Assembly: GCF_025370715.1 (NCBI RefSeq)
Contig: NZ_JAMXEY010000002.1
Reading direction: 5' to 3' (one strand)
Length of the DNA: 64,000 nucleotides
Source: Laspinema olomoucense D3d
GTDB taxonomy: Bacteria; Cyanobacteriota; Cyanobacteriia; Cyanobacteriales; Laspinemataceae
The translations under genes and the position numbers were made by a program. Below the pieces are notes generated by a model. That model saw only the letters and a program-made list of their open reading frames with translations. It was not told where the DNA came from and searched no databases. This document shows, in pieces, positions 40,375-59,178 of this stretch (within the stretch, counting starts at the first letter, position 1; every line of letters begins with the position of its first letter).

Positions 40375-40857
40375 TCATTCTTTCAAAAAATTCATTAAAA
40401 ATTTTTTGGAATGGTGAGCCATGCCAATGAAAGTAATCATCGGGATTGCTAAACCCGCTAAGAAAATCGCAATCGAGCTTAAAAATACTGCAAAAGATGG
40501 GCTTTTAAGCATCATTAAAGAGACCCAAGTTGCTCTTCCCGCAGTTATTAGCCATATTCCAAAAAAAATCATAACCCCTGGATGAATTTTAATTTGGATA
40601 TCGATTTGACTCCCGCTATTATGTTCCCTAATCTGGCCATCAAGTACCGGGAAAAAAGACTCACGATAGCGATCGGAACTGAGATGGTAGATAATTTTTG
40701 AAATTTGAAAAGAGTCTTGATGGATTTTTCCGCGATAGAGTGGAGTGATACTTTTCTCCCCTATCTGATAGTCTGTGTCCACAATTCCCATTAATTTTTC
40801 CCGAACTTGGTAGGGTTTTAGTGGGCTTTGAATAGTAACTTTTTGATAAGTCAACAT
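40375..40857 (-). CDS. Paralog 2 (more divergent) of the same small membrane protein family
   Basis: 160 aa. Same architecture (YRGKIHQDSFQISKIIYH...FPVLDGQIREH..., two C-terminal TM helices). Confidence 0.55.
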   Translation of the reverse strand: MLTYQKVTIQSPLKPYQVREKLMGIVDTDYQIGEKSITPLYRGKIHQDSFQISKIIYHLSSDRYRESFFPVLDGQIREHNSGSQIDIQIKIHPGVMIFFGIWLITAGRATWVSLMMLKSPSFAVFLSSIAIFLAGLAIPMITFIGMAHHSKKFLMNFLKE

Positions 40858-40943
40858 TTTTTAATTTTCACCACTATGTTGTAAAAGTATTTACAGCTTT
40901 TTTAGTCATAGAGGCATACAATTTTGCCTCTATCACTCTTAAA

Positions 40944-41429
40944 TTAAAAATTTTCACTCCCTTGAAACAATTCCATCAAAAACTGTTTAGACTTCTTAGC
41001 TTCCGGGATAAATCCAATCAAGGGTAACACTAAACCAAAAATGAACATTCCCACAGGCATTAAGAACAAAGGGTGAAATTCTTCAAACAGGACCGCTAAA
41101 AACATCAAGGCAGCTTGTCCAACTATACCCAGCCAAACGCACATAAAAATCAAAACAGCCCGGTGCAGTTTCATTTGAATTTCGATTTTACTGCCTTTAG
41201 CTTGGGCGTGAATTCGCCCCTCAATCTGGGGTAAAAAAGAATTGCGATAGGAAATGATTCGAGAAATTTTGAAAGAATGTTCACCGATTTGTCCCTGGTA
41301 GGGTTTTTCCGGCCTTTTCCACCGCACCGGGACCCATTGAGGGGGAGGTTCCACAACTGCTATTAATTTTTCCTGGACTTCATGGGGACTGAGATAAGTG
41401 GTCATTGTAAACCTTTGAAAGGGAAACAT
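40944..41429 (-). CDS. Paralog 3 of the same small membrane protein family
   Basis: 161 aa, MFPFQRFTMTTYLSPHEVQEKL...QGQIGEHSFKISRIISYRNSFLPQIEGRI... Confidence 0.55.
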   Translation of the reverse strand: MFPFQRFTMTTYLSPHEVQEKLIAVVEPPPQWVPVRWKRPEKPYQGQIGEHSFKISRIISYRNSFLPQIEGRIHAQAKGSKIEIQMKLHRAVLIFMCVWLGIVGQAALMFLAVLFEEFHPLFLMPVGMFIFGLVLPLIGFIPEAKKSKQFLMELFQGSENF

Positions 41430-41544: not shown

Positions 41545-43338
41545 TTAGTCCAAGCCCCTATCTTCCAGCATCCCCCGGAATTTGTGTTTGCGGGCGTGGA
41601 TTTGTAGCAATTCTTGACGATAAGTTTTCCAGCGGGTCCACTGCTCTTTTTGAATATAAGCTGCCCGCACTTTTTTCAACCAGTCGATCGCCTGATTATA
41701 GAATTCAGATTTTTTGCGATCTAAAATCGATTCCGCAAGGGGTTGCGCCGTTTCAATCACCCAGTCTGGACGGTGTTTAATCGCCGCATCCATGACCCGA
41801 TGCACCAACTCTATCTCATAGGAACCAAAGCCTTCTACGGCGGCGATCGCCTCATCAATTAACCCTTCACTTAGGAAAATATCTACTTTAACCTCAGTTT
41901 TGTTCCAAATTTTATGTTCCCTCAGAGAATTTAATAAATTGGGCTGGTATTTGAACCAATTTTCACCGGCTAATTCTTTTATTTTAAAATAATCACTCGA
42001 AGTGGGGTTATCGTAAAAAGCGGATTTTCTCGCCTCCAGTTCTACCTCAGTATTTCCTAATTCTTGAGCTAAATCAGCGGTCCAACTTGCAAGTTTATAT
42101 TGGGAATCTCCCCGTAATTTCAACCCCATTCCCCCGACTTCCAGGGCTTGGTTGACTTTCCCATTACTGCGTAAGGTTTGACCCAGGGATAACGCTTCTT
42201 CCATTGTTTTCATTTGGTTCCGGGCGGCTTCCATTGCTTCCGTAGTTCGTCCTAAACTGCCCAACATGGTAAGATATTGTTTGATTTTGCCTTGGGCTTT
42301 AGCCAGGTTCAAATACTCCTGATATCGCTCTTGCCGATCCAGAATTTTTAAGCGAATTAATACCAAATCCGGGAAAGCATTGGGGGAAGAATTTTCCGCT
42401 ATTCCTGGTTCGGATAGGGTTCCTTGGAGGGCTTGTACCAAATGCGGTTCATCCCATCCTTCGCTGAGGGATTCTAAGCTGAGGGGAAATTCGGTACTCC
42501 ACTCCTCTTGGAGGATTTTTAAGCGCGATCGCCACTGTTCCACTTCACGGGAACTGAGGGATTCGCTGAGAATCGCTTCGGCGATCGCCTCATCCACTGC
42601 TGTGACAATTTCATCGGACTCAATCCCATACTGTTCCACCCGGTCCCAATCGGCTGCACAAGCTGAAGCAATGGCTTCTAACACGATTAAAGCATTATAA
42701 CTTTCCCCAATTTCTATTAATCCTTGAATATTATCAATTAAATCTAACAACTCCTCGGTTACCGGGTCATCTTCACCGTCTAAGCTTTCAAAATACCGCA
42801 TCCCTTCATATAAAATATCCCGCGCCTGCTGACGAAAAGGAGCCGGATTGATAGGGGAAGGACGCTGATTATGGGGTGATTCTATTGGACTATTTATTTC
42901 ATTATTTAAGGTAATGTAATAGTCAATTTCATCAATAATTTCGGGTCTTTGTTTAACTAACTCTTGCACTAGACCTTGGATTTGGGCCCGGTTGAGCTGA
43001 GCGAGCAATTGCTCCAAAGTCGGACGCTCTTGAATAGTTTCTGGTTGCCGCATTACCACCAATAAGGTAGCGACAATATGTTCACACCATTCAGACTTAT
43101 CATCAGCACAAGAACAGGTCGCCGAGGTCAAACAGCCCGGGTCAAACCCCACCCGAACCCGATAGGGTTGGTCTGCATTATCCATCACTTCGGCATTGAG
43201 TAAATTGCCTCGCCGAGTCACGGAGGTTACATTGCCCGCTTCATAATCCGACTGGCCTTTGCTAAACAATGCAGGGGCAGATTTCTGGCGAATGAGGCGA
43301 TCGGTCAAGTCAGGAGTTTTAGACATAAAGCAATCCAA
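41545..43338 (-). CDS. SWIM zinc-finger domain protein, otherwise all-alpha, unknown function
   Basis: 597 aa. N-terminal CSCADDKSEWCEHIVATLL fits CxC-Xn-CxH SWIM. Remainder helical with no enzymatic motif. Confidence 0.7.
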   Translation of the reverse strand: MDCFMSKTPDLTDRLIRQKSAPALFSKGQSDYEAGNVTSVTRRGNLLNAEVMDNADQPYRVRVGFDPGCLTSATCSCADDKSEWCEHIVATLLVVMRQPETIQERPTLEQLLAQLNRAQIQGLVQELVKQRPEIIDEIDYYITLNNEINSPIESPHNQRPSPINPAPFRQQARDILYEGMRYFESLDGEDDPVTEELLDLIDNIQGLIEIGESYNALIVLEAIASACAADWDRVEQYGIESDEIVTAVDEAIAEAILSESLSSREVEQWRSRLKILQEEWSTEFPLSLESLSEGWDEPHLVQALQGTLSEPGIAENSSPNAFPDLVLIRLKILDRQERYQEYLNLAKAQGKIKQYLTMLGSLGRTTEAMEAARNQMKTMEEALSLGQTLRSNGKVNQALEVGGMGLKLRGDSQYKLASWTADLAQELGNTEVELEARKSAFYDNPTSSDYFKIKELAGENWFKYQPNLLNSLREHKIWNKTEVKVDIFLSEGLIDEAIAAVEGFGSYEIELVHRVMDAAIKHRPDWVIETAQPLAESILDRKKSEFYNQAIDWLKKVRAAYIQKEQWTRWKTYRQELLQIHARKHKFRGMLEDRGLD

Positions 43339-43494
43339 TCTGATAGAAAATAGAGAAATTGACGGGTTGTTAAAGAATCAAGATAGCGTATCCTCATCCG
43401 TTTACAAAACAGGAATCGCCATTTTCTCTAATTCCTATCATATCCAGGGATGCTCTAACTCGCAAGACTCATTTACAGATATTCACAACTACTA

Positions 43495-46173
43495 TTATTC
43501 AATGGGTTGACACTCAGGCGATCGCAACCCGGGAAAAGAAACGCTTCCCTCGGGTATCGCCGCCATTAACTCAATTGTTCCTTGCGCATTCCGTCGCCAA
43601 GCAGTCGCTTCCTGGAGTGGGGAAGACGGATTTGTAGAGGAAGGGGTGCGACGGCGAGGAGGTTCAACGGTAACCGTTTCCCCCTCTAAATCTTGGAAAA
43701 AGTTGCGTAAATCATGCCAAATCGGTTGGGTTTGGAGGGGTTGAGTCGGGTCCGTGGGTAATCCTCCTCGTCCCGAAATGGTAAAAGAATTCTCATCGGA
43801 TAAGGCACAACCCACAAAGTTATTATCCCTCGCTTGACCCAGCATTTCGGGTAATTCTACTAATCCCGTGGAGGGATTAACATCAGGGGTATTAATTGTG
43901 ACACTGCCGCTAAACTCCGCCCCGAGTTCGGAGGTGGCGGTAATATCACTTTGTGGCGTGAGTTCTGTGCGAAAATTAGTCCCCAAGATGCCTTGGGCGG
44001 CGATCGCCACGCGACCCCCAAAACTGGCGCTGGAATTCGCTGTAATATCACTATTCTCTACGGCAACTAACGTATCTGTAGCGATCGCAATATTCCCTCC
44101 CGTCCCACTCCCACTAGCATTTGTGGTAATTCCCCCTTGGTTCCACAACTGGATATCCCGAGATTCAATAAAGATATTCGCTTGATCCCCTTGGACTGTT
44201 TCTGCGGCGATCGCAGCATTGTTAACCACAATCTGCCGCCCCACAATTTCAATATTCCCGGCGATTCCCGTCTTCTCACTACTGGCGGAAATGATGGCGC
44301 GATCGCCTAAAATTAACTGTCCCGTCTGCAAGCGCATCGTCCCCGCATTCCCCGTCTCTGTAGAAGCAGCAAAAATTCCTGTAGGAAATAGGATTCCAGA
44401 CTCATCCGGGAAGAAAAATCCCCCCTCTATTGCCGGAACTGCACCGGATAAAACAATCGCCTCAGTTGCCAAAATCTCCAAATTTCCCCCATCTCCAGCG
44501 CCAAATGTACCCACACTAATCTGTGCGCCATCCCGCAAAATTAACCTCGGGGTTTCAATCCGTAAATTATCTCCATTCCCTTCTCCCAAAGTATCACTAA
44601 AAACAATCACCGGATTGCCAACGCGATCGACTCCCCCAAATTCCATCACTTCCGTTGCCTGCAAAAGCACAGGACCACCATCCCCCGCCTCAAAGGTGGT
44701 ACTACCCACATTCGCCCCATTCAGAATCCGTAATACTGCCGTCTCAATCTCTAAACTTCCCGCATTTCCCATTGCCTCCGGGTCTACGGTACTTTCCGCC
44801 CCTGTGGGCCTTAGCACATCGTTACTGGAATTCAATCCATCAAAAACCACCGACTCCAAGGCGCGAATTACCAGGGGTGCACCATTCCCCTGACCCCGGG
44901 TTCCCGTGATCATGCCTGCCCCATCTTTGACCAACACAGAACCCGCCTGAATCTCAATGCCGCCTGCATTTCCGACCCCTTCGGGTGCTACATCTGCCGA
45001 GGCGATGGTGATGAAATCTTCTCTCCCCTGTCCATCGAATACCACGGACTCGCGGGCGGTAATTTGCAGTTTACCGCCATCCCCTTCCCCGGATGTGCTA
45101 GTAGAAATTATCGCACTTGTGGCGGAAAAGGTGGTAGTATTCAAAGTGATGTTACCGCCATCGCCAACCCCCTTGGGTTGGACTTCATTGGTGATCGCAC
45201 TCTCTCCAGTCAGCAGAATATTTCTCCGGGCGTCAATATCGATATTTCCTGCTTGTACACCGGGTTCTCCTGACCCTGGCGCAATCCCCCCGCGAATCTC
45301 AGACTGCCCTGAAATCAGCAGATTCTCGACTTGAATGGCGATACTTCCACCCCCTGCACCGGCCACATCCACTCGCGCCCCATTCGTGAGATGGAGTGGC
45401 GATCGCTCGACGGTTTCCGGCAGTTTGAGTGCGTTTCCCCCTGGTAATTCCACCACTCCTGCCTCGGAGATTCCCCCCAAAGTCACAGTTCCACCGGGAA
45501 CCCGTAATTGTCCCCCCTCCAGGGTAATCTCACCCCCAACTAGGGTTAAGGTTTGATTCGGCAGCACAGTTAGAACCGAATCCCTCACAAAAATGCTCTC
45601 GGGATTGGGTCCATATTGTAACCCGATGGGGACATTAATGCTCAAAATAGGGGATGAATCAGGGTTTGTGGCGCTAAAGGCGCGATCGTCAGGAAATAAC
45701 ACACTGTGGGCGGTACTCCCGACAAAAGAACCGCCTAGATTCAGGGTGGCATTCGGTCCGAAGGCAATGCCACTGGGATTAATTAAAAATAAATTCGCGC
45801 TGCCATTAGCGGCGATCGCCCCATCAATTTGGGACAGTTTGCCTCCGGTAATGCGAGTAATAATATTAGCGATAGTGGTGGAATTATTAAAAAGTGCAGC
45901 AGTTCCCGTCGGGATAGAAAATTCCTGGAAACTATGGAACAAATTACTACCGGCAGCAGTTCCCCCCTCAATCGTGAGGGTATTGCCGTTGATCTGAACC
46001 CCCGAAGGATTCGGAAGGGTATTATCCGGTATAACCTGCGCCTGGAGGGATTTGTGTCCTAACCCTCCGTCCAAAAATAGCAAGGCACTCATCAAGCTAA
46101 AAATAGATAGATAATAATGACCCCAATACATCACGGTTTGGCAACTCCTGACTCTACTATTTTTCTTGATCAT
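43495..46173 (-). CDS. Two-partner-secretion (TpsA-type) exoprotein: filamentous haemagglutinin N-terminal (TPS) domain + long beta-helical repeat body
   Basis: 892 aa. Signal peptide. TPS domain (NTLTIEGGTAAGSNLFHSFQEFSIPTGTAALFNN...ANLFLINPSGIAFGPNA). Then about 600 aa of Gly/Asn/Thr-rich beta-helix repeats. Confidence 0.85.
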   Translation of the reverse strand: MIKKNSRVRSCQTVMYWGHYYLSIFSLMSALLFLDGGLGHKSLQAQVIPDNTLPNPSGVQINGNTLTIEGGTAAGSNLFHSFQEFSIPTGTAALFNNSTTIANIITRITGGKLSQIDGAIAANGSANLFLINPSGIAFGPNATLNLGGSFVGSTAHSVLFPDDRAFSATNPDSSPILSINVPIGLQYGPNPESIFVRDSVLTVLPNQTLTLVGGEITLEGGQLRVPGGTVTLGGISEAGVVELPGGNALKLPETVERSPLHLTNGARVDVAGAGGGSIAIQVENLLISGQSEIRGGIAPGSGEPGVQAGNIDIDARRNILLTGESAITNEVQPKGVGDGGNITLNTTTFSATSAIISTSTSGEGDGGKLQITARESVVFDGQGREDFITIASADVAPEGVGNAGGIEIQAGSVLVKDGAGMITGTRGQGNGAPLVIRALESVVFDGLNSSNDVLRPTGAESTVDPEAMGNAGSLEIETAVLRILNGANVGSTTFEAGDGGPVLLQATEVMEFGGVDRVGNPVIVFSDTLGEGNGDNLRIETPRLILRDGAQISVGTFGAGDGGNLEILATEAIVLSGAVPAIEGGFFFPDESGILFPTGIFAASTETGNAGTMRLQTGQLILGDRAIISASSEKTGIAGNIEIVGRQIVVNNAAIAAETVQGDQANIFIESRDIQLWNQGGITTNASGSGTGGNIAIATDTLVAVENSDITANSSASFGGRVAIAAQGILGTNFRTELTPQSDITATSELGAEFSGSVTINTPDVNPSTGLVELPEMLGQARDNNFVGCALSDENSFTISGRGGLPTDPTQPLQTQPIWHDLRNFFQDLEGETVTVEPPRRRTPSSTNPSSPLQEATAWRRNAQGTIELMAAIPEGSVSFPGLRSPECQPIE

Positions 46174-48785: not shown

Positions 48786-50957
48786 ATGAAAGTCACTGTA
48801 GAACCTCCTTTTTTAACCATTAATCATGGCAGCATATTTATGGTGTCCGAACTGGACGGACAAATTCAATGCGACAAGTTTCAAGGAATTTTTGCTGATG
48901 ATACCCGGTTTTTAAGTGAATATGCCTGTTTTATAGACAATACGTCCTGGATGCGGCTCACCTCGTCAGTCACGCGCTATTATGCCAGCAAAATTTATTT
49001 AACTAATCCCGCCATTTCCAGCCAAAATGGAGAAATTGCTAAAGGCGCGCTATCCTTAACCATCGCTCGGACTGCCGAACATGGAATTCATGAAGACCTA
49101 GATATTACCAATCATAGCCTCAAAGCCGTAAAGTTTCATTTGGATTTAGAGATTAATTCCGATTTTGCGGATATTTTTGAAGTCCAATCCGGGGAATTCG
49201 TGCGGCGGGGTCAAATTGAAACCGACTGGGATAAAAAAGAGTATAAACTTCGCCATACTTATAATAATGGAGATTTTTATCGATGCATGATCGCCCATTG
49301 GAATAACCTGACATCACCCCCGCATTATGCGAATGGTCGAGTTACCTTTCAAATTGAATTAGAAGCGGGTGCAAGTTGGCACGCTTGCTGTTGCTATACC
49401 CTGATTGATAACGAACACTGCCACAAACCCATTTCTTTGTGCTATGACGAAGCCATCAAATCCGATGTAAATACCGAATTGCAACAGTTGCAGCGGCAGT
49501 GGCAGGATGTCTGCACAACGATCGCCACCTCAAACGAGGATCTCAAGCGACTGTACTGCCAGAGTCTCGAAGACATGAGTGCGATGCGCCTCTATGACTA
49601 CGATATGGCTCCCGATGTGTGGCTACCCGCAGCAGGAGTTCCCAAATATGTGGCGCTATTTGGTCGCGATAGCTTAACTGCCAGCTTGCAAAATCAGATT
49701 ATTCATCCCGGGTTTGCCCGAGGTGCACTCCAAAAATTAGGGCAGTTTCAAGCGAAGGAATATAGTGACTGGCAGGATGCACAACCGGGAAAAATCCTCC
49801 ATGAACTGCGTCAGGGGGAGTTGGTTTACTTGAAAAAAAGTCCGCGATCGCCTTATTACGGTGCAGCGGATACCACCCCTCTCTATACAATCGTCCTTCA
49901 CGAAACTTGGAAATGGTTAGGAGATGACTCTCTCTTGAAAGATTACCGCGATGTCGCCCTCCGCTGTTTGGACTGGATCGATCGCTATGGTGATCTCGAT
50001 GGGGATGGCTTCCAGGAATATCAAGTGCGCTCAGAAAAAGGCATCGAAAACCAATGCTGGAAAGACTCCGGAGATTCAATCGTCTATCCCGATGGATCAC
50101 AAGTCAAATCCCCAAAAGCCCTGTGTGAACTCCAAGGCTATGTCTTTGATGCTTGGATGCGGATGGCGGAAGTCTTTGCGGCACTCGGTGAGAAGGATAG
50201 CGCCACCGAATTACAAGGCAAAGCCGAAAAACTGCGAGTGCAATTTGAGGAACGCTTTTGGTGTGAAGACTTGGGATTTTATGCCTTAACCCTAGATCCA
50301 GATAAACAGCCGGTAGGCTCGATCGCCTCAAATCCGGGTCATTGCCTCTGGAGTGGCATCGTCAGTCCAGAACGCGCTCAACGGGTGGTTAAACGGCTGC
50401 TAGAACCCGATATGTCCAGTGGTTGGGGAATTCGCACCTTGTCCTCAAATCATCCCTCTTTTAACCCCTTTTCCTATCATCTCGGGTCCGTCTGGCCCCA
50501 TGATAACGGCATCATTGCCCTCGGCTTCAAACGCTATGGCTTCCATGAAGCCGTTGCAAGTGTAGCAGCGGATATTTTCGAGACAGCCAGCCATTTCGCC
50601 TGCTATCGGGTTCCCGAAGTCTATGCCGGGACAAAACGCCAGATAGGAGCATTTCCCGTCCCCTATATTGAAGCAAATATACCCCAAGCTTGGGCTGCCG
50701 GTTCCGTCTTCCACCTAATCCAGGCCCTATTGGGATTACAAGCGAATGCACCCCAAGGGTGCTTATATGTTGATCCCTATTTGCCCAATTGGTTACCCGA
50801 CTTGACCCTGTACGGTTTAGAGGTGGGGGATTCCTCCATAGACTTACGGTTTTGGCGCGAAGGCGATCGCACTTGCTGGGATGCCTCGGTCCGTAGTGGC
50901 ACCATTTCGGTCCAGCAAAAAGCATGGCAACCTTGGGCGATCCCTGTATCGGTATAG
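48786..50957 (+). CDS. Amylo-alpha-1,6-glucosidase family protein (bacterial/archaeal-type glycogen debranching enzyme, GDE_N + GDE_C)
   Basis: 723 aa. N-terminal GDE_N_bis-like beta-domain and C-terminal (alpha/alpha)6 barrel (GYHLGSVWPHDNGIIALGFKRYG). Confidence 0.8.
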   Translation: MKVTVEPPFLTINHGSIFMVSELDGQIQCDKFQGIFADDTRFLSEYACFIDNTSWMRLTSSVTRYYASKIYLTNPAISSQNGEIAKGALSLTIARTAEHGIHEDLDITNHSLKAVKFHLDLEINSDFADIFEVQSGEFVRRGQIETDWDKKEYKLRHTYNNGDFYRCMIAHWNNLTSPPHYANGRVTFQIELEAGASWHACCCYTLIDNEHCHKPISLCYDEAIKSDVNTELQQLQRQWQDVCTTIATSNEDLKRLYCQSLEDMSAMRLYDYDMAPDVWLPAAGVPKYVALFGRDSLTASLQNQIIHPGFARGALQKLGQFQAKEYSDWQDAQPGKILHELRQGELVYLKKSPRSPYYGAADTTPLYTIVLHETWKWLGDDSLLKDYRDVALRCLDWIDRYGDLDGDGFQEYQVRSEKGIENQCWKDSGDSIVYPDGSQVKSPKALCELQGYVFDAWMRMAEVFAALGEKDSATELQGKAEKLRVQFEERFWCEDLGFYALTLDPDKQPVGSIASNPGHCLWSGIVSPERAQRVVKRLLEPDMSSGWGIRTLSSNHPSFNPFSYHLGSVWPHDNGIIALGFKRYGFHEAVASVAADIFETASHFACYRVPEVYAGTKRQIGAFPVPYIEANIPQAWAAGSVFHLIQALLGLQANAPQGCLYVDPYLPNWLPDLTLYGLEVGDSSIDLRFWREGDRTCWDASVRSGTISVQQKAWQPWAIPVSV

Positions 50958-51094
50958 TCATCCCAACTCCTAAGCTAGATCAACCCCAGGCGGAAAACCT
51001 GTGGGTTGATTATCTATCTTAATCGTCTCTATTCTTCTAAAACTTAGTATAAAATATTGCTTTTGAAGGGCGCTCATCCTCAATTAATCGCACT

Positions 51095-51733
51095 TTACAG
51101 AATTTCTTCACCGCCACATAACAACAAAATTGTATTAATAAACGCCTTGAGTTCTGAACAAACCTCGATAGACTCCATCAAATCGTTTTCCTCTAAAATC
51201 TTTAAACCATCCCGAGTTTTACTATAACTTCTGGGGGATTTGCCTTGCTCAAAAATTTCTTGAATATGTTTCGAGGGCGGTTTCTGATGATTCACTTTCT
51301 CCGGATTGCCGCTAGGAACAGATTTATTATGTTTGGCTAACTTTTGAATGGTCGGCCAAAACGGTAAAAGCCATGCCTCAAAATCATGTTGTGCAGCGTG
51401 GGGATAAAAGTTAGGATTGTTTCCTACCCATTCTTTCATTTTTTGTTTAGCATCGGCTGCATTTTTAAAATCCTCGGTTCCAGTATAAACGTCGGTTAAG
51501 GCAATCACTGCATCATAAGCATCCTTGCCACTCAGCAGCTTTTCTACGTCACTTTTAAGTTTGTCTTTTTTCGGAATCCGTCCATGATAAGGTTTTGGCT
51601 GTAATTTAGGCATTTTTCCTGGTAAACGGGAATTCAGAAAGCGCCGCAAACTCGGTATCAAGGCTTTTTCAGTTGCGCCTTCAACTAAAATAGCAATTTT
51701 CACGATCGCCCTCCGATGATATTCATCGCCCAC
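51095..51733 (-). CDS. DUF4276 (Toprim-like) protein, partner of the upstream AAA ATPase
   Basis: 212 aa. N-terminal IAILVEGATEKALIP matches the VEGxTE opening of DUF4276/OLD-type Toprim. Overlaps the ATPase gene by about 34 nt. Confidence 0.6.
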   Translation of the reverse strand: MGDEYHRRAIVKIAILVEGATEKALIPSLRRFLNSRLPGKMPKLQPKPYHGRIPKKDKLKSDVEKLLSGKDAYDAVIALTDVYTGTEDFKNAADAKQKMKEWVGNNPNFYPHAAQHDFEAWLLPFWPTIQKLAKHNKSVPSGNPEKVNHQKPPSKHIQEIFEQGKSPRSYSKTRDGLKILEENDLMESIEVCSELKAFINTILLLCGGEEIL

Positions 51734-52845
51734 AGTTCATCTAAACTATACTCTTCCAACCATTTCTCTAAATCTAAAGAATCCGCCCAAGTCATGGTTG
51801 TGGAACCCTCTTCATCTGCATCGCATACCAGCACTTCGTCTGGTTGCAAAAATCGGATCAGGCGATCAGAATGGGTGGCAACAATCAGTTGAGTTCGTTT
51901 CGATGCTTCTCGCATCACATCCACCAGCAATCGCAACAATTCTGGATGCAAGCTGACTTCCGGTTCATCGATAAGCGTTACAGCAGTTAAATTCGGACTT
52001 TGCAGTAGGGTGACTAACCACAAAAACCGCACCGTCCCCTCGGAAAGTTGATGCATATAAAGGGGATGCGAAAAATTTTTCTCCTTCCAAGTCAATGCCA
52101 ATGTGCCTGCTGCTACTGGGGGAAAACTCAAGCGTTCAAAACTAGGAAAGGCAGCAGACAAAGTATCGCTTATCAGTTCAAATCGATCCGGGTCTGTTTC
52201 CCGTAAATTATAAAGGCAGGAAACTAAATCTTCCCCCCGATTTCCGGGTAAAGTTGCCGGACGCATCGCTTGCGGTAATCGCACGGGGCTGGTAGGCGAT
52301 AAATTCAATTCCCAAGCTCGATAAAAGCTACAGGAGGCTAATTGCTTCCGCACTGCTTCCGCTTCTTGGTACATTTTAGGAACTTGTGAAAGCGAGGTTT
52401 CTAACGGATTATGTTCCCAATTTGGACGGACCGGAACCTGATTGTCATTAGCAAAATATTGAACATCTAAACCGCTGGAATTTATGTAAGTAAACAAGAA
52501 AGGCGATCTAGTAAGAGATTCCTGCTCTATTTCATAAAATTGTTGGCCTTTAATGTCTAATTTTAAAAAATAGTTAAACTGTCCATATTTTTCTAAATAA
52601 GCTGACCGGACCACGCGCAAATTATCAGCCTGATCTCGCGTCAATATATCACTCAAGCCCCCAAATTCAGAAATTTTTGACTGTAACTGACCTTTTGCAG
52701 ATTCTGATAACAGGGAGAACATTTCCAAAAAAGATGTCTTCCCGACTCCGTTGGCCCCGATGATGACCGTTAAAGGTCTCATTTCGACTTGGACTGTGCG
52801 TAAGCGACGGAATCCATAAATCTCTATTTTTTCAAAACCATTCAT
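51700..52845 (-). CDS. AAA_21/ABC-type (OLD-like, SMC-fold) ATPase
   Basis: 381 aa. Walker A GANGVGKTSFLE near N-terminus. Distal Walker B/D-loop LIDEPEVSLHPELL and H-loop VATHSDRLI. Confidence 0.8.
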   Translation of the reverse strand: MNGFEKIEIYGFRRLRTVQVEMRPLTVIIGANGVGKTSFLEMFSLLSESAKGQLQSKISEFGGLSDILTRDQADNLRVVRSAYLEKYGQFNYFLKLDIKGQQFYEIEQESLTRSPFLFTYINSSGLDVQYFANDNQVPVRPNWEHNPLETSLSQVPKMYQEAEAVRKQLASCSFYRAWELNLSPTSPVRLPQAMRPATLPGNRGEDLVSCLYNLRETDPDRFELISDTLSAAFPSFERLSFPPVAAGTLALTWKEKNFSHPLYMHQLSEGTVRFLWLVTLLQSPNLTAVTLIDEPEVSLHPELLRLLVDVMREASKRTQLIVATHSDRLIRFLQPDEVLVCDADEEGSTTMTWADSLDLEKWLEEYSLDELWAMNIIGGRS

Positions 52846-53121
52846 AATAGGTTTGTTGTTGGGTCATGTTTAAGATCAGTTCTACATTGGTAAAATTATA
52901 CCACATTCATCGGGTTGTTGTAAAATTTTTATTTTTTTGTAAAGAGTGGCAGGAGGTTGACAAAATTTGGTCCGATTAATTTAGATGGTTAACCCCTTGA
53001 TTTAGGCCCGATCGCCCCCTTACTATCTCCTCAATTCTCCCATACTGAATACCAAATCTCTGTACCTCCCTAGTGAAAATTCACTCTACAATTATAAGAA
53101 ACCTATAGGACGATCGCAGAA

Positions 53122-54525
53122 ATGTTTCAAGCAACCCGCCGACGGTTAGCGATTTGGTATGCGGCACTCACAGCAGTGTTGCTGCTGGTGTTTGCTACGG
53201 GATTTTATGTGTATGTGCGGAGTACCTTAATCGATCGCATTGATGACACCCTCAAGCACGTTGTGGAAGTGGTGGAACGCTCGCTGGCGATCGATGAAAA
53301 CCCCAACACCGGCCAATATACCGTAAATGTTGTCGCCAGTTTCCGCAACAATGCTAAAACCGTCGAAGATGACCATATCGATTTAGAATGGTTTAGTCCC
53401 ACTGGGGAATTATTGTGGTCTACCCTTTGGGAACCTTTAAAAATTCCCCTGCACCCGAAAAAAAATGGGGAAACGGTACAACTGTCGGGAGGACAACTCC
53501 TGCGCCAATTCACCGATCGCGTAGAAATTGGACGGCAAGTGGTAGGATATTTGCGAGTCAGTCATCCCTGGTTTGAAGTGACCAAACCGATTCGGCAATT
53601 AATTATTGATTTAAGTTTGGGAACCTCCCTCATGGCAATTGCCATTAGTGCGATCGCCTGGTTACTGTCAGGATTAGCCATGAAACCTGTGCGGGATTCT
53701 TACCAGCGTCTCAAACAGTTTACCTCCGATGCCTCCCATGAACTCAGAAACCCGATCGCCACGATTCAAACAAATGTGCAAGTAGCCCTTGCGGACCCGG
53801 AATTAGATTCACCAATCCATCGCCAGCAATTACAGCTAGTCGAACGCTTGACGCGCCGTATGGGACGATTGGTGGATGATTTGCTCTTTTTAGCGCGACA
53901 AGATAGCGGCATAGTGAAAGTGAGGAAACAACCTGTGCCAATGGATGCCTTATTGATGGAAGTAATGGAGGAACAAGAGGCGATCGCCGCCGAAAAAGGC
54001 ATTGAATTAGTATTAGAAATTATTGATCCGCCCGATAGGGGCAATCACGCCCTCTCCCCCCTTATGGATCCAGAAACTGAACCGGGACTGGATTTTACCA
54101 TCCCCGGAGATTGGGACCAACTGGCGCGACTGTTTACGAATTTAGTCAGTAATGGATTGCAATACACCGCGAAAGGGGGCCAAATTGCCATCACCTTAGA
54201 ATGTAGCGGGGTGAGCAATCGCCCGAGTGCCAATAGCGGTGTCCAAGTTACGGTGAAAGATAGCGGAATCGGCATTCCGGCAGAGTCGGTGCCTCATATT
54301 TTTGATCGCTTTTATCGAGTGGACCCGGCGCGGAGTCATGAACCTCACCAGTCGCCGGAATGGGGTTCTACGGGGTCTGGATTGGGACTGGCGATCGTCC
54401 GGGCGATCGTGGAAAATCATCACGGTTGGATTCGGGTAGACAGTCAGCTTAATCTCGGCACTACCGTTAGCGTTATCCTTCCGCTCTCCAAACCCGACCC
54501 AGAAAAACCGCATCCCGAGGCATAA
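53122..54525 (+). CDS. Two-TM sensor histidine kinase (HisKA + HATPase_c), no cognate regulator adjacent
   Basis: 467 aa. H-box FTSDASHELRNPIATI. G-boxes GSGLGLAIVRAIVENHHG. Confidence 0.85.
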   Translation: MFQATRRRLAIWYAALTAVLLLVFATGFYVYVRSTLIDRIDDTLKHVVEVVERSLAIDENPNTGQYTVNVVASFRNNAKTVEDDHIDLEWFSPTGELLWSTLWEPLKIPLHPKKNGETVQLSGGQLLRQFTDRVEIGRQVVGYLRVSHPWFEVTKPIRQLIIDLSLGTSLMAIAISAIAWLLSGLAMKPVRDSYQRLKQFTSDASHELRNPIATIQTNVQVALADPELDSPIHRQQLQLVERLTRRMGRLVDDLLFLARQDSGIVKVRKQPVPMDALLMEVMEEQEAIAAEKGIELVLEIIDPPDRGNHALSPLMDPETEPGLDFTIPGDWDQLARLFTNLVSNGLQYTAKGGQIAITLECSGVSNRPSANSGVQVTVKDSGIGIPAESVPHIFDRFYRVDPARSHEPHQSPEWGSTGSGLGLAIVRAIVENHHGWIRVDSQLNLGTTVSVILPLSKPDPEKPHPEA

Positions 54526-55092: not shown

Positions 55093-55752
55093 TTATCTTG
55101 GACGATAAGATCCAGGAATTTTTTTGGCCAACCCTTGGGCAAATTCTTTCTCGAACTCAAAGGCTTCTACTTCTAATTTATTATTTCTGTAGATTTCTCC
55201 GGCTTTTTTATATTCTTTAAAATAGTGATAGCCAAAATTTCCTAAGCTGCCGAGTTGTTCGTGCTGCTGGCAGTGGATTAGTTCGTGGGAGAGCAGGACC
55301 AGTTGCTCGAAGTCCTGTTCTTTCATCTCCTTCTTAATATAAATGGTGTTTCCATAAACTTGAGCGTTGGATTCACCCACATTAATTTTGAAACTTGCCG
55401 CTACCCAATCTTCCATTAAAGTAGCATTATAAACCACTTTCACCCGATCCACTAAATCGCCAAAATGGGGGCGTAAATATTGTTTTTGAGTCTCAGTTAA
55501 AGCTTGCGGTTCAGCATTATTGGAACTCATCACTTCTGCGGCTGCTTGATAAGCCACCGCTCCAAATTGACCCCAAGCTTCTTCAGGCATTTCTTTAGGA
55601 ACTTGTCCCCGGCAAATCTGGCCTCCGAGGGTTTGGGCATCTGGGCAAGTGTGGCTTTCTGGATTAATCATGGGATTACTGAAGGCTCCGAAACCCACGG
55701 TTACGAATCCCAGACAAGCACCAATTAAGTTGACTTTACGGGAGGTGAGCAT
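55093..55752 (-). CDS. DUF4157-like HExxH zinc-metallopeptidase-motif protein with N-terminal signal/TM segment
   Basis: 219 aa. FGDLVDRVKVVYNA...YGNTIYIKKE...LVLLSHELIHCQQHE matches the DUF4157 core (FGxDLSxVRVH...GxxIxF...LLAHELTHVxQ). Confidence 0.55.
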   Translation of the reverse strand: MLTSRKVNLIGACLGFVTVGFGAFSNPMINPESHTCPDAQTLGGQICRGQVPKEMPEEAWGQFGAVAYQAAAEVMSSNNAEPQALTETQKQYLRPHFGDLVDRVKVVYNATLMEDWVAASFKINVGESNAQVYGNTIYIKKEMKEQDFEQLVLLSHELIHCQQHEQLGSLGNFGYHYFKEYKKAGEIYRNNKLEVEAFEFEKEFAQGLAKKIPGSYRPR

Positions 55753-58248: not shown

Positions 58249-59178
58249 TTATCGATCGCCGGGTTTAAGTCGAAAAATATAGACGAATTTTCGGCGATCT
58301 GCCGGGATAATTTTCTTTAAAATTCCCTCGACTTCGGCTTTGGTCCCACCGCTGGCGATCGGCATTTCTTCAAACAGGGCAATCCAGCCCTTTTTTATCC
58401 CTATTTCTCGCCAGCGTGCCTGATAAATTTCGGCGTACAACCGCCCCATTTCTTGGTAATAGGTAACTTTTAAATCTACACTTTTTTGGACTAATTCTTG
58501 TATTTGAACTTCATAAGTTTTTCGATTCTCTTCACTCTGTAGATAAAATTTTAGGAGTTCGCCGTGGCTCAGAGGGCTGAGTTGATGATCGGGCTGAGGT
58601 GCTGGGGGTGGTTCCGCTGCTGCAACTTCCGTCAAGGAGGCGATAATTCCAAATTTTTCAACGGCATGATGATAGGTTTCACTCAGACTCCCTTTAATGC
58701 TTAAACCTAAATAAAAGGGATAGGGTTGTAAGGTTCCATCATAGATAATTTTGTTTTTAAAGGGTAAGAGTACCGTTTCCACCATCACCGGCAAAACACT
58801 CCCCACCAGTTCGGGAAAGGGACAATCCAGGGCTAACACGCCGTAGGCTTTACTGGGAGGGCGATCGGCAATTAACACCGCATAATTTTGGTGATAACTA
58901 TAAATATAAAATCTTCCCGAAATAAAATTGTGCCAACTGGAAACAATTTGCAGTAAATCTGGAGCAATTTTCAGGGGGTTTTCTTCGGCAAATAAATCAA
59001 AGAGGTAGGGATGAGTATAGAGTTGCTGGCGGAGTTCATTAACCTGTAACGGCGTCAGTTCTGACATTTCCTCTGAACCACAGCATCCGGCAAAAAGACC
59101 AAATTTTTGATTAACATAAATTAAGATGGAATAGTATAGATGGTAAAATAAATCAATATCTGAATCGGCTAATTGCAT
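58249..59178 (-). CDS. Hypothetical protein (309 aa), unknown family
   Basis: Long ORF with normal codon usage. No recognisable motif. Confidence 0.5.
   Translation of the reverse strand: MQLADSDIDLFYHLYYSILIYVNQKFGLFAGCCGSEEMSELTPLQVNELRQQLYTHPYLFDLFAEENPLKIAPDLLQIVSSWHNFISGRFYIYSYHQNYAVLIADRPPSKAYGVLALDCPFPELVGSVLPVMVETVLLPFKNKIIYDGTLQPYPFYLGLSIKGSLSETYHHAVEKFGIIASLTEVAAAEPPPAPQPDHQLSPLSHGELLKFYLQSEENRKTYEVQIQELVQKSVDLKVTYYQEMGRLYAEIYQARWREIGIKKGWIALFEEMPIASGGTKAEVEGILKKIIPADRRKFVYIFRLKPGDR

Follow-up and report, generated by a model that had tools for sequence, protein, structure and literature searches.

What is the function of two overlapping minus-strand genes in the filamentous cyanobacterium Laspinema olomoucense D3d, and how long have they been there? 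The genes, here called A and B, lie at 51095–52845 of a 64,000-nucleotide stretch of contig NZ_JAMXEY010000002.1, the whole of which was analysed and is referred to as the window. An earlier note, made from the letters of the DNA, had read them as an antiphage pair of an ATPase and a Toprim-like protein on recently acquired DNA. Profile matches assign the pair to HEC-01, an already catalogued but mechanistically uncharacterised candidate family of phage defence. We consider it probable that A and B form a self-contained operon of the HEC-01 type, in which an ABC ATPase would be coupled to an OLD-like Toprim nuclease and triggered by infection, and which is an old resident of the chromosome.

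Assignment of the Pair to HEC-01

HEC-01 (Hma-embedded candidate 01, PADLOC-DB v2) was defined by Payne et al. (10.1101/2024.01.29.577857) as a candidate system of an ABC ATPase together with a TOPRIM protein embedded in Hma systems. The pair is classed with this family because everything in the definition that could be checked was found, i.e., a HEC-01A match, a HEC-01B match, and adjacency of the two genes on the same strand. Gene A matches the HEC-01A profile PDLC04175 (4.9e-73, 244 bits) with residues 4–380 on positions 6–361 of 363, and nine more HEC-01A profiles are also matched. This is by far its best match in PADLOC-DB, ahead of AriA, AbiLi, mad3, GajA, and PtuA. Gene B matches the HEC-01B profile PDLC04188 (3.4e-18, 64 bits) with residues 7–203 of the 212-aa (amino acid) longest open reading frame (ORF) on positions 9–224 of 230. 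The likeness to HEC-01 thus comprises two adjacent, co-oriented genes for an ABC ATPase and for a TOPRIM-like protein with full-length profile matches for both. It differs in its setting, as the family was defined from copies inside Hma/MADS operons, whereas the copy in the window stands alone among housekeeping genes, without a methyltransferase or helicase partner.

The protein from gene A is predicted to be a compact ABC (SMC/RecF-like) ATPase, with an architecture read from sequence profiles. Pfam AAA_21 is matched at 2.8e-38 (residues 25–330 on positions 1–303 of 304) and AAA_15 at 8e-23. The protein carries a Walker A motif (GANGVGKT, 30–37), a probable Q-loop at Q154, a signature motif (LSEGT, 267–271), a Walker B motif (LIDEPE, 291–296), a D-loop (SLHP), and an H-loop (ATHS, 323–326, with H325). 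In an alignment of 34 homologs, all of these ABC motifs fall in invariant or nearly invariant columns. Walker A and the signature motif lie about 230 residues apart. Among proteins of solved structure, sequence matches were obtained to the ABC ATPases PtuA, OLD, GajA, and AriA (phmmer to AriA, E 0.0028).

The protein from gene B begins with KIAILVEGATE and matches the whole Pfam DUF4276 profile (3.8e-32), a family placed in the Toprim superfamily (PMC12065111). Other matches are marginal: RloB (16.8 bits, gathering threshold 31.5), AbiLii, and OLD-like_TOPRIM, where the local match spans the EGxTE segment. Pfam gave no DUF4435 match (E ≤ 0.1), no AriB profile was among the PADLOC matches, and profile searches against the sequences of the Protein Data Bank returned no meaningful match. 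The AlphaFold2 model of B, built with 35 homologs, has a pLDDT (predicted local distance difference test) score of 91.3 and a predicted template modeling (pTM) score of 0.88, and shows four strands alternating with helices followed by a helical C-terminal region. Two independent structure searches with this model put OLD C-terminal regions on top, and the best five Foldseek matches were all of this kind (E 6e-5 to 3.5e-4). The predicted link between B and OLD is confined to this fold and the short local Pfam match.

A library-wide HMMER search for the B family gave 425 cluster representatives (E ≤ 0.001), and residue conservation was assessed in 37 full-length members at 30–60% identity. E8, G9, E12, D71, and C182 are invariant in these, and E109, W111, E135, and K162 are among the nearly invariant positions. 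In the model, the ExxxE motif after strand 1 and the Asp ending strand 3 would fit a Toprim metal site.

Several claims of the earlier note were borne out by these results. The two genes are real and encode the Walker A, ATHS, and IAILVEGATE motifs that it listed, the DUF4276/Toprim-like identity of B is supported by the strong Pfam match and by the OLD-like fold of the model, and the split architecture of ATPase plus Toprim agrees with the profile and structure matches. Its family assignment was right as to the supergroup only, since HEC-01 fits better than PARIS or AbiL. Its 34-nt overlap and 212-aa product of B came from taking the longest ORF, and a 4-nt overlap and 202 aa are likelier.

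Comparison With Known Systems

By its profiles, the pair is a split ABC-ATPase and Toprim-fold system within the OLD/PARIS/AbiL/MADS supergroup. A published grouping puts AbiL and MADS3-4 together with OLD, Gabija, and PARIS as systems built from an ABC ATPase together with a Toprim domain (PMC11464382). The MADS proteins Mad3 and Mad4 of Pseudomonas aeruginosa show the same succession of an AAA_15/21-type ATPase and a DUF4276 protein. Yet A scores only 89.9 bits against the NCBIfam profile MAD3 (NF047739, cut-off 420), through residues 201–374 in its C-terminal half, the match to PADLOC mad3 is partial (79 bits), and no other MADS genes are found nearby.

PARIS also differs. AriB is a DUF4435 protein of ∼300 aa, whereas B is a DUF4276 protein of 202 aa, and AriA is longer than A (∼460 versus 381 aa) and has extra arms. 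The two AriA profiles score 117 and 86 bits against 244 for HEC-01A, and the better of them shares its length and coordinates with the generic AAA_21 match. PARIS is also frequent on phage satellites and prophages, whereas the family studied here was not found in phage, plasmid, or viral collections.

In the OLD family (P2 Old, the class 2 OLD proteins of B. pseudomallei and X. campestris, and GajA of Gabija) the ATPase and Toprim parts are fused, unlike the two ORFs seen here with their own start and stop codons, and the DxD of OLD is replaced by D-V-Y in B. No GajB-like (UvrD-like) helicase adjoins the pair, and the GajA profile matches of A are partial (66.8 bits). AbiL (AbiLi and AbiLii) and the RloA/RloB-type pairs likewise combine an ABC ATPase with a small Toprim-superfamily protein, but the scores for AbiLi (89 bits), AbiLii (13.5 bits, E 0.02), and RloB are far below those for HEC-01 and DUF4276.

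Gene Structure and Translational Coupling

The start of B is most likely the GTG at 51703, which gives a predicted protein of 202 aa. This start is favored because the GTG and the TGA of A share 4 nt (GTGA), a GGAGG lies 6 nt upstream, and the homologs of B are 198–204 aa long with the N-terminus MKIAILVEG. The nearest of them, from L. olomoucense and 99% identical, has an annotated length of 202 aa. L. olomoucense is the closest named relative, with 97–99% identity. An overlap of 4 nt, either GTGA or ATGA, was present in 12/12 loci examined. The junction is identical to that of the window in three other Laspinema-clade genomes, and eight more loci, drawn from other cyanobacteria, Acidobacteria, and Ca. 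Ozemobacter, show the same type of overlap. The coordinates are collected in Table 1.

Table 1. Features of the gene pair and its surroundings. Positions are those of the window unless a locus is named; functional names are predictions.
Feature	Position	Strand	Basis
Gene A, ABC-type (SMC/RecF-like) ATPase of HEC-01A type, 381 aa	51700..52845	-	ORF and Pfam/PADLOC matches
Gene B, DUF4276 protein of HEC-01B type, 202 aa, OLD-like Toprim fold followed by a helical region	51095..51703	-	
Translational-coupling junction A/B	51700..51714	-	GGAGG 51714-51710 within the 3' end of A; GTG 51703-51701 overlaps TGA 51702-51700
Promoter-like site, TTTACA, 18-nt spacer, TG-extended TATAAT	52895..52924	-	Consensus match
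G+C-rich hairpin between the convergent ends of B and the glycoside-hydrolase-like (GDE-like) gene	50980..51009	.	Fold of 50958-51100
Histidine kinase orthologs near the pair	Locus L029 4265-5623 and locus L030 524-1945	-	61-63% identity

Two Gly residues near the C-terminus of A (G378-G379) are invariant, and their codons GGAGGG (51709–51714, minus strand) double as the Shine-Dalgarno sequence of B. In Nostoc and Sphaerospermopsis these codons are GGTGGT, so that the Gly-Gly is kept at the protein level despite a poorer ribosome-binding match.

The promoter-like site upstream of A agrees with the consensus at 11 of 12 positions, has a TG preceding the −10 box, and lies ∼50 nt 5' of the ATG. 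In total, promoter-like sites are no more numerous in the region than in shuffled sequence. The extended −10 box (TGGTA(T/A)AAT) and the proximal leader of A are conserved in three sister genomes. At the other end, the hairpin has a stem of ∼12 pairs without a T-run, and the z-score is only −2.0 for the whole 143-nt stretch that was folded. It is a possible, weak candidate for a bidirectional terminator; a terminator scan called none downstream of B.

Inheritance Within the Laspinema Clade

Sister genomes were retrieved through the flanking GDE-like gene and comprise L. palackyanum D2a, Oscillatoria sp. HE19RPO, and the metagenome-assembled genome (MAG) MFD01721. The gene order SOD, GDE-like, B, A, histidine kinase, P219 was found in 3/3 of them, with A and B 90–94% identical to those of the window. 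Pairwise synonymous divergence (dS) within the Laspinema clade is 0.27–0.41 for the pair and matches that of its four neighbors (SOD, GDE-like, kinase, and P219), and the ratio of nonsynonymous to synonymous divergence (dN/dS) is also like that of these genes, with 0.09–0.13 for A and 0.11–0.13 for B. Since the pair sits at the same locus with flank-like dS and dN/dS, it is older than these species and under ordinary purifying selection, i.e., an old and stably inherited resident of the chromosome. No empty site was found among the three sister genomes.

The spacer between A and the kinase gene is 1742 nt in L. palackyanum D2a compared to ∼276 nt, and it holds an extra gene for a 469-aa protein with a match to beta-propeller (SBBP) repeats (L003 14269–15678, minus strand). 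Gene gain or loss has thus taken place in this spacer within the genus, with the proximal promoter region of A kept. In MAG MFD01721.bin.1.50 the kinase ortholog aligns as two abutting out-of-frame pieces (L005 15495–15498), probably due to a frameshift or a sequencing error.

Neighborhood and Base Composition

The neighbors of the pair are genes for SOD, a GDE-like hydrolase, an orphan histidine kinase (53122–54525, plus strand, divergent from A), a pentapeptide-repeat protein, and proteins without a family. Neither an integrase nor a transposase was seen in the neighborhood within the window, and a search of the flanks for att-like or terminal repeats, direct or inverted, returned only short matches at chance level.

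The pair itself is moderately AT-rich. Its G+C content (GC) is 0.421 against 0.480 for the window, in the 4th percentile of equal-sized windows. For GC at third codon positions (GC3) the values are 0.41 in A and 0.35 in B compared to 0.478 ± 0.046 for long ORFs, which puts B 2.8 standard deviations below the mean. The flanking spacers, described as conspicuously AT-rich in the earlier note, turned out to be ordinary: their GC is 0.39 and 0.37, within the 0.28–0.52 of the further spacers that were examined from 36 to 64 kb. The scarcity of HIP1 (GCGATCGC) that it had also noticed is real but at chance level. The window holds 102 sites where <1 is expected by chance, which marks it as cyanobacterial DNA, and the interval from 50871 to 53649 around the pair has none; this 2787-nt gap exceeds all others in the window. 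When 102 sites were placed at random, however, the largest gap reached at least 2787 nt in 71% of the placements (P ∼0.71). Three other gaps of 2.3–2.5 kb occur in the window, and seven other genes between 36 and 64 kb are also without HIP1. As the gap is not statistically significant, HIP1 depletion was rejected as a marker of foreign origin.

Some other ORFs in the window also have low GC and lack HIP1 as well as any Pfam or PADLOC family. Three tandem ORFs of 163, 160, and 161 aa (39707–41429, minus strand) have the lowest GC in the stretch examined (0.37–0.41) and very AT-rich spacers (0.28–0.30). They lie just downstream of two genes (41545–46173), one for a 597-aa protein that has no Pfam family and one for an 892-aa exoprotein with a two-partner-secretion (TPS) domain, and could be toxin or immunity-type cassettes. 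Two further, conserved ORFs are of 219 aa (55093–55752, minus strand, GC 0.43) and 309 aa (58249–59178, minus strand, GC 0.42). The 219-aa protein contains a HELIH motif (HExxH, a signature of the zinc-metallopeptidase type) and is syntenic in 4/4 Laspinema-clade genomes.

Distribution Beyond Laspinema

Outside the clade, the pair occurs as a stand-alone two-gene unit amid unrelated genes in Nostoc, Microcoleus, Sphaerospermopsis, an Oscillatoriaceae metagenome bin, Acidobacteria, and Ca. Ozemobacter. It is thus found in several unrelated contexts and not in a universal housekeeping one, and with the strong DUF4276 match of B neither of the two outcomes that the earlier note had named as refuting it has come about. 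A and B are adjacent and intact in all 12 loci, and the identity between copies of A rises and falls with that between copies of B (r = 0.61, 36 non-redundant pairs). Acidobacterial copies of the cassette are 68% identical, and their B proteins are 65–73% identical to cyanobacterial ones, which compares with 63–81% between cyanobacterial orders, while the neighboring GDE-like protein is only 36% identical to its acidobacterial homologs. GC of the cassette is below that of its flanks in every host checked, from Nostoc (0.38 versus 0.42) to Ozemobacter (0.54 versus 0.68). The unrelated contexts, the similarity of B between Acidobacteria and cyanobacteria, and the low GC indicate that the cassette has moved horizontally over long times, with stable vertical inheritance over short ones.

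Full-length orthologs of the histidine kinase, also divergently oriented, adjoin the pair in Oscillatoria sp. SIO1A7 and lie 3.9 kb off in another cyanobacterial metagenome contig. The association of kinase and pair could reflect old synteny or a regulatory link.

Parts of ABC transporters adjoin the pair in three other hosts (L033 3774–9007; L001 5904–9578; L028 7838–9646). In L033 the pair lies between genes for a membrane-fusion protein and a MacB/FtsX permease, on the same strand, where the gene for the transporter ATPase might be expected. Such neighbors may be due to chance or to a preferred insertion context, and may be a possible source of the name "ABC transporter ATP-binding protein" given to some homologs.

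Proposed Function and Alternative Explanations

We infer an antiphage function by analogy with OLD, Gabija, PARIS, and Mad3-Mad4. As in these systems, A would dimerize or oligomerize on ATP and serve as sensor and regulator, and B would be a metal-dependent nuclease effector. The active site of B might be formed by E8 and E12 (the ExxxE of VEGxTE) together with D71, which ends strand 3, and E109, which follows strand 4. A may bind B and either keep it inactive or recruit it, and on an infection-associated cue B would cut nucleic acid, which might be DNA, the target of OLD and GajA, or tRNA, the target of AriB. Cleavage would then stop phage replication, directly or via abortive infection. Two sets of published experiments bear on this proposal. 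In MADS, deletion of either mad3 or mad4 lowers resistance, so that the Mad3 (ATPase)-Mad4 (DUF4276) pair is accessory but required for full resistance, and the methylase gene mad5 could be deleted only when mad2 or mad3 was deleted as well (10.1101/2023.03.30.534895). A HEC-01 system from a cold seep is reported to have made E. coli B resistant to one or more of the phages T4, T5, and T7 (10.1101/2024.09.26.614923).

A number of observations speak against a role in defense. The HEC-01 representative of Payne et al. gave no protection against any phage tried in E. coli MG1655 (10.1101/2024.01.29.577857). Neither a tblastn search of 72,556 plasmids and 50,697 phages nor a scan of the IMG/VR viral contigs turned up a relative of B, and the pair is not part of a defense island, with no strong PADLOC match within 10 kb of it. 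The insert of A, its would-be sensing surface, has a column identity of 0.72–0.87 compared to 0.84–0.89 for the ATPase core, and the ATPase has no hypervariable region; PARIS differs in this respect, its pore residues being poorly conserved (PMC11464382). For A, AlphaFold2 yielded a poor model (pLDDT 53.5, pTM 0.52), which was not used. Finally, the canonical DxD of Toprim domains is absent in B. The clade has D71-V-Y, in which only the first Asp is invariant, and the third position of the motif is variable or gapped across the wider family. DxD has been reported in Menshen-linked DUF4276 domains (PMC12065111), a description from which the clade in the window departs. Because of the missing DxD, we can only infer that B is catalytically competent. 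The case for defense is weakened by the conflict between the HEC-01 tests, by the fact that A has no variable sensing surface, by the failure to find the pair on mobile elements, and by its housekeeping-like stability.

These features, and the setting outside a defense island, also count in favor of a domesticated module for genome maintenance or RNA processing, and such a non-immune role in filamentous cyanobacteria is the main rival to defense, even if we regard it as unlikely. The shared locus in four Laspinema-clade species, evolutionary rates indistinguishable from those of SOD, GDE-like, kinase, and P219, and 63–81% identity across cyanobacterial orders all agree with it, and the kinase ortholog near the pair in two more distant cyanobacteria suggests long vertical co-inheritance. 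Set against this, the neighborhood differs in most genera, and the inter-phylum similarity far above that of a neighboring gene and the GC below the host flanks in every host checked point to an accessory gene that moves horizontally. Relatives of the pair are moreover required for resistance in the immune operons of MADS/Hma, one HEC-01 system did protect against phage, and defense genes, too, commonly show purifying selection as strong as this. A selfish addiction module of the toxin-antitoxin type, in which B would be a toxic nuclease checked by A and loss of the pair would kill the cell without any benefit against phages, appears distinctly improbable. In line with it are the tight coupling of translation, in which the gene of the putative inhibitor comes first, the insertion of a stand-alone two-gene unit among unrelated genes, names in the databases (AAA_21 was historically labeled "putative AbiEii toxin", and depositors call the PARIS ATPase "AriA antitoxin"), and the toxin-antitoxin genes that some loci carry close to the pair (TacA at L028, Zeta and ParE toxins at L001). 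Yet plasmids, which commonly carry addiction modules, gave no copy of the pair, the toxicity of B is putative, and if the pair were simply useful, one would equally expect it to be inherited vertically for long with low dN/dS in both genes. An addiction module would also be compatible with abortive-infection defense, and is in part a sub-case of the HEC-01 defense operon that we favor.

The recently acquired islet proposed in the earlier note has very little probability left. The lower GC of the pair, GC3 of B, and the HIP1-free interval are its supports, but the pair has the same position and the synonymous divergence of its flanks in all three sister genomes, the HIP1 gap and the GC of the spacers are unremarkable for the window, and neither notable flanking repeats nor an integrase or transposase accompany it. 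Still more remote is the reading of A as the ATP-binding subunit of an ABC transporter, in spite of the names of some homologs and the transporter genes that adjoin the pair in L001, L028, and L033. Pfam ABC_tran is matched with 25.2 bits through residues 19–57 in the Walker A region only, whereas AAA_21, AAA_15, and HEC-01A are matched over the full length. The long distance from Walker A to the signature motif, an obligate partner with a predicted Toprim fold instead of a permease, and the lack of an adjoining permease in the window also contradict it, and on this domain architecture the transporter reading was rejected.

Implications

The evolution of the pair, which resembles that of housekeeping genes, is a caution against taking "AT-rich, HIP1-poor" DNA as a sign of recent transfer. 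HEC-01 as a family is catalogued but mechanistically blank, with its two published tests in conflict, and a highly conserved, compact clade with a confidently modeled effector is a good subject for biochemistry. There is a rather small chance that the cyanobacterial HEC-01 clade is instead a domesticated ABC-ATPase/Toprim-nuclease machine, not immune, that acts on a conserved cellular target with a non-canonical single-Asp Toprim site, for example in the surveillance or repair of multi-copy chromosomes or in the processing of stable RNA. Such a non-immune role would, if true, be the more interesting outcome. Few defense systems have been tested in filamentous cyanobacteria, whose phages matter to the ecology of blooms and mats. 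If the antiphage function of the HEC-01 pair is right, its 381 and 202 aa would represent a clean minimal example of the ABC-ATPase and Toprim logic of defense in such an organism.

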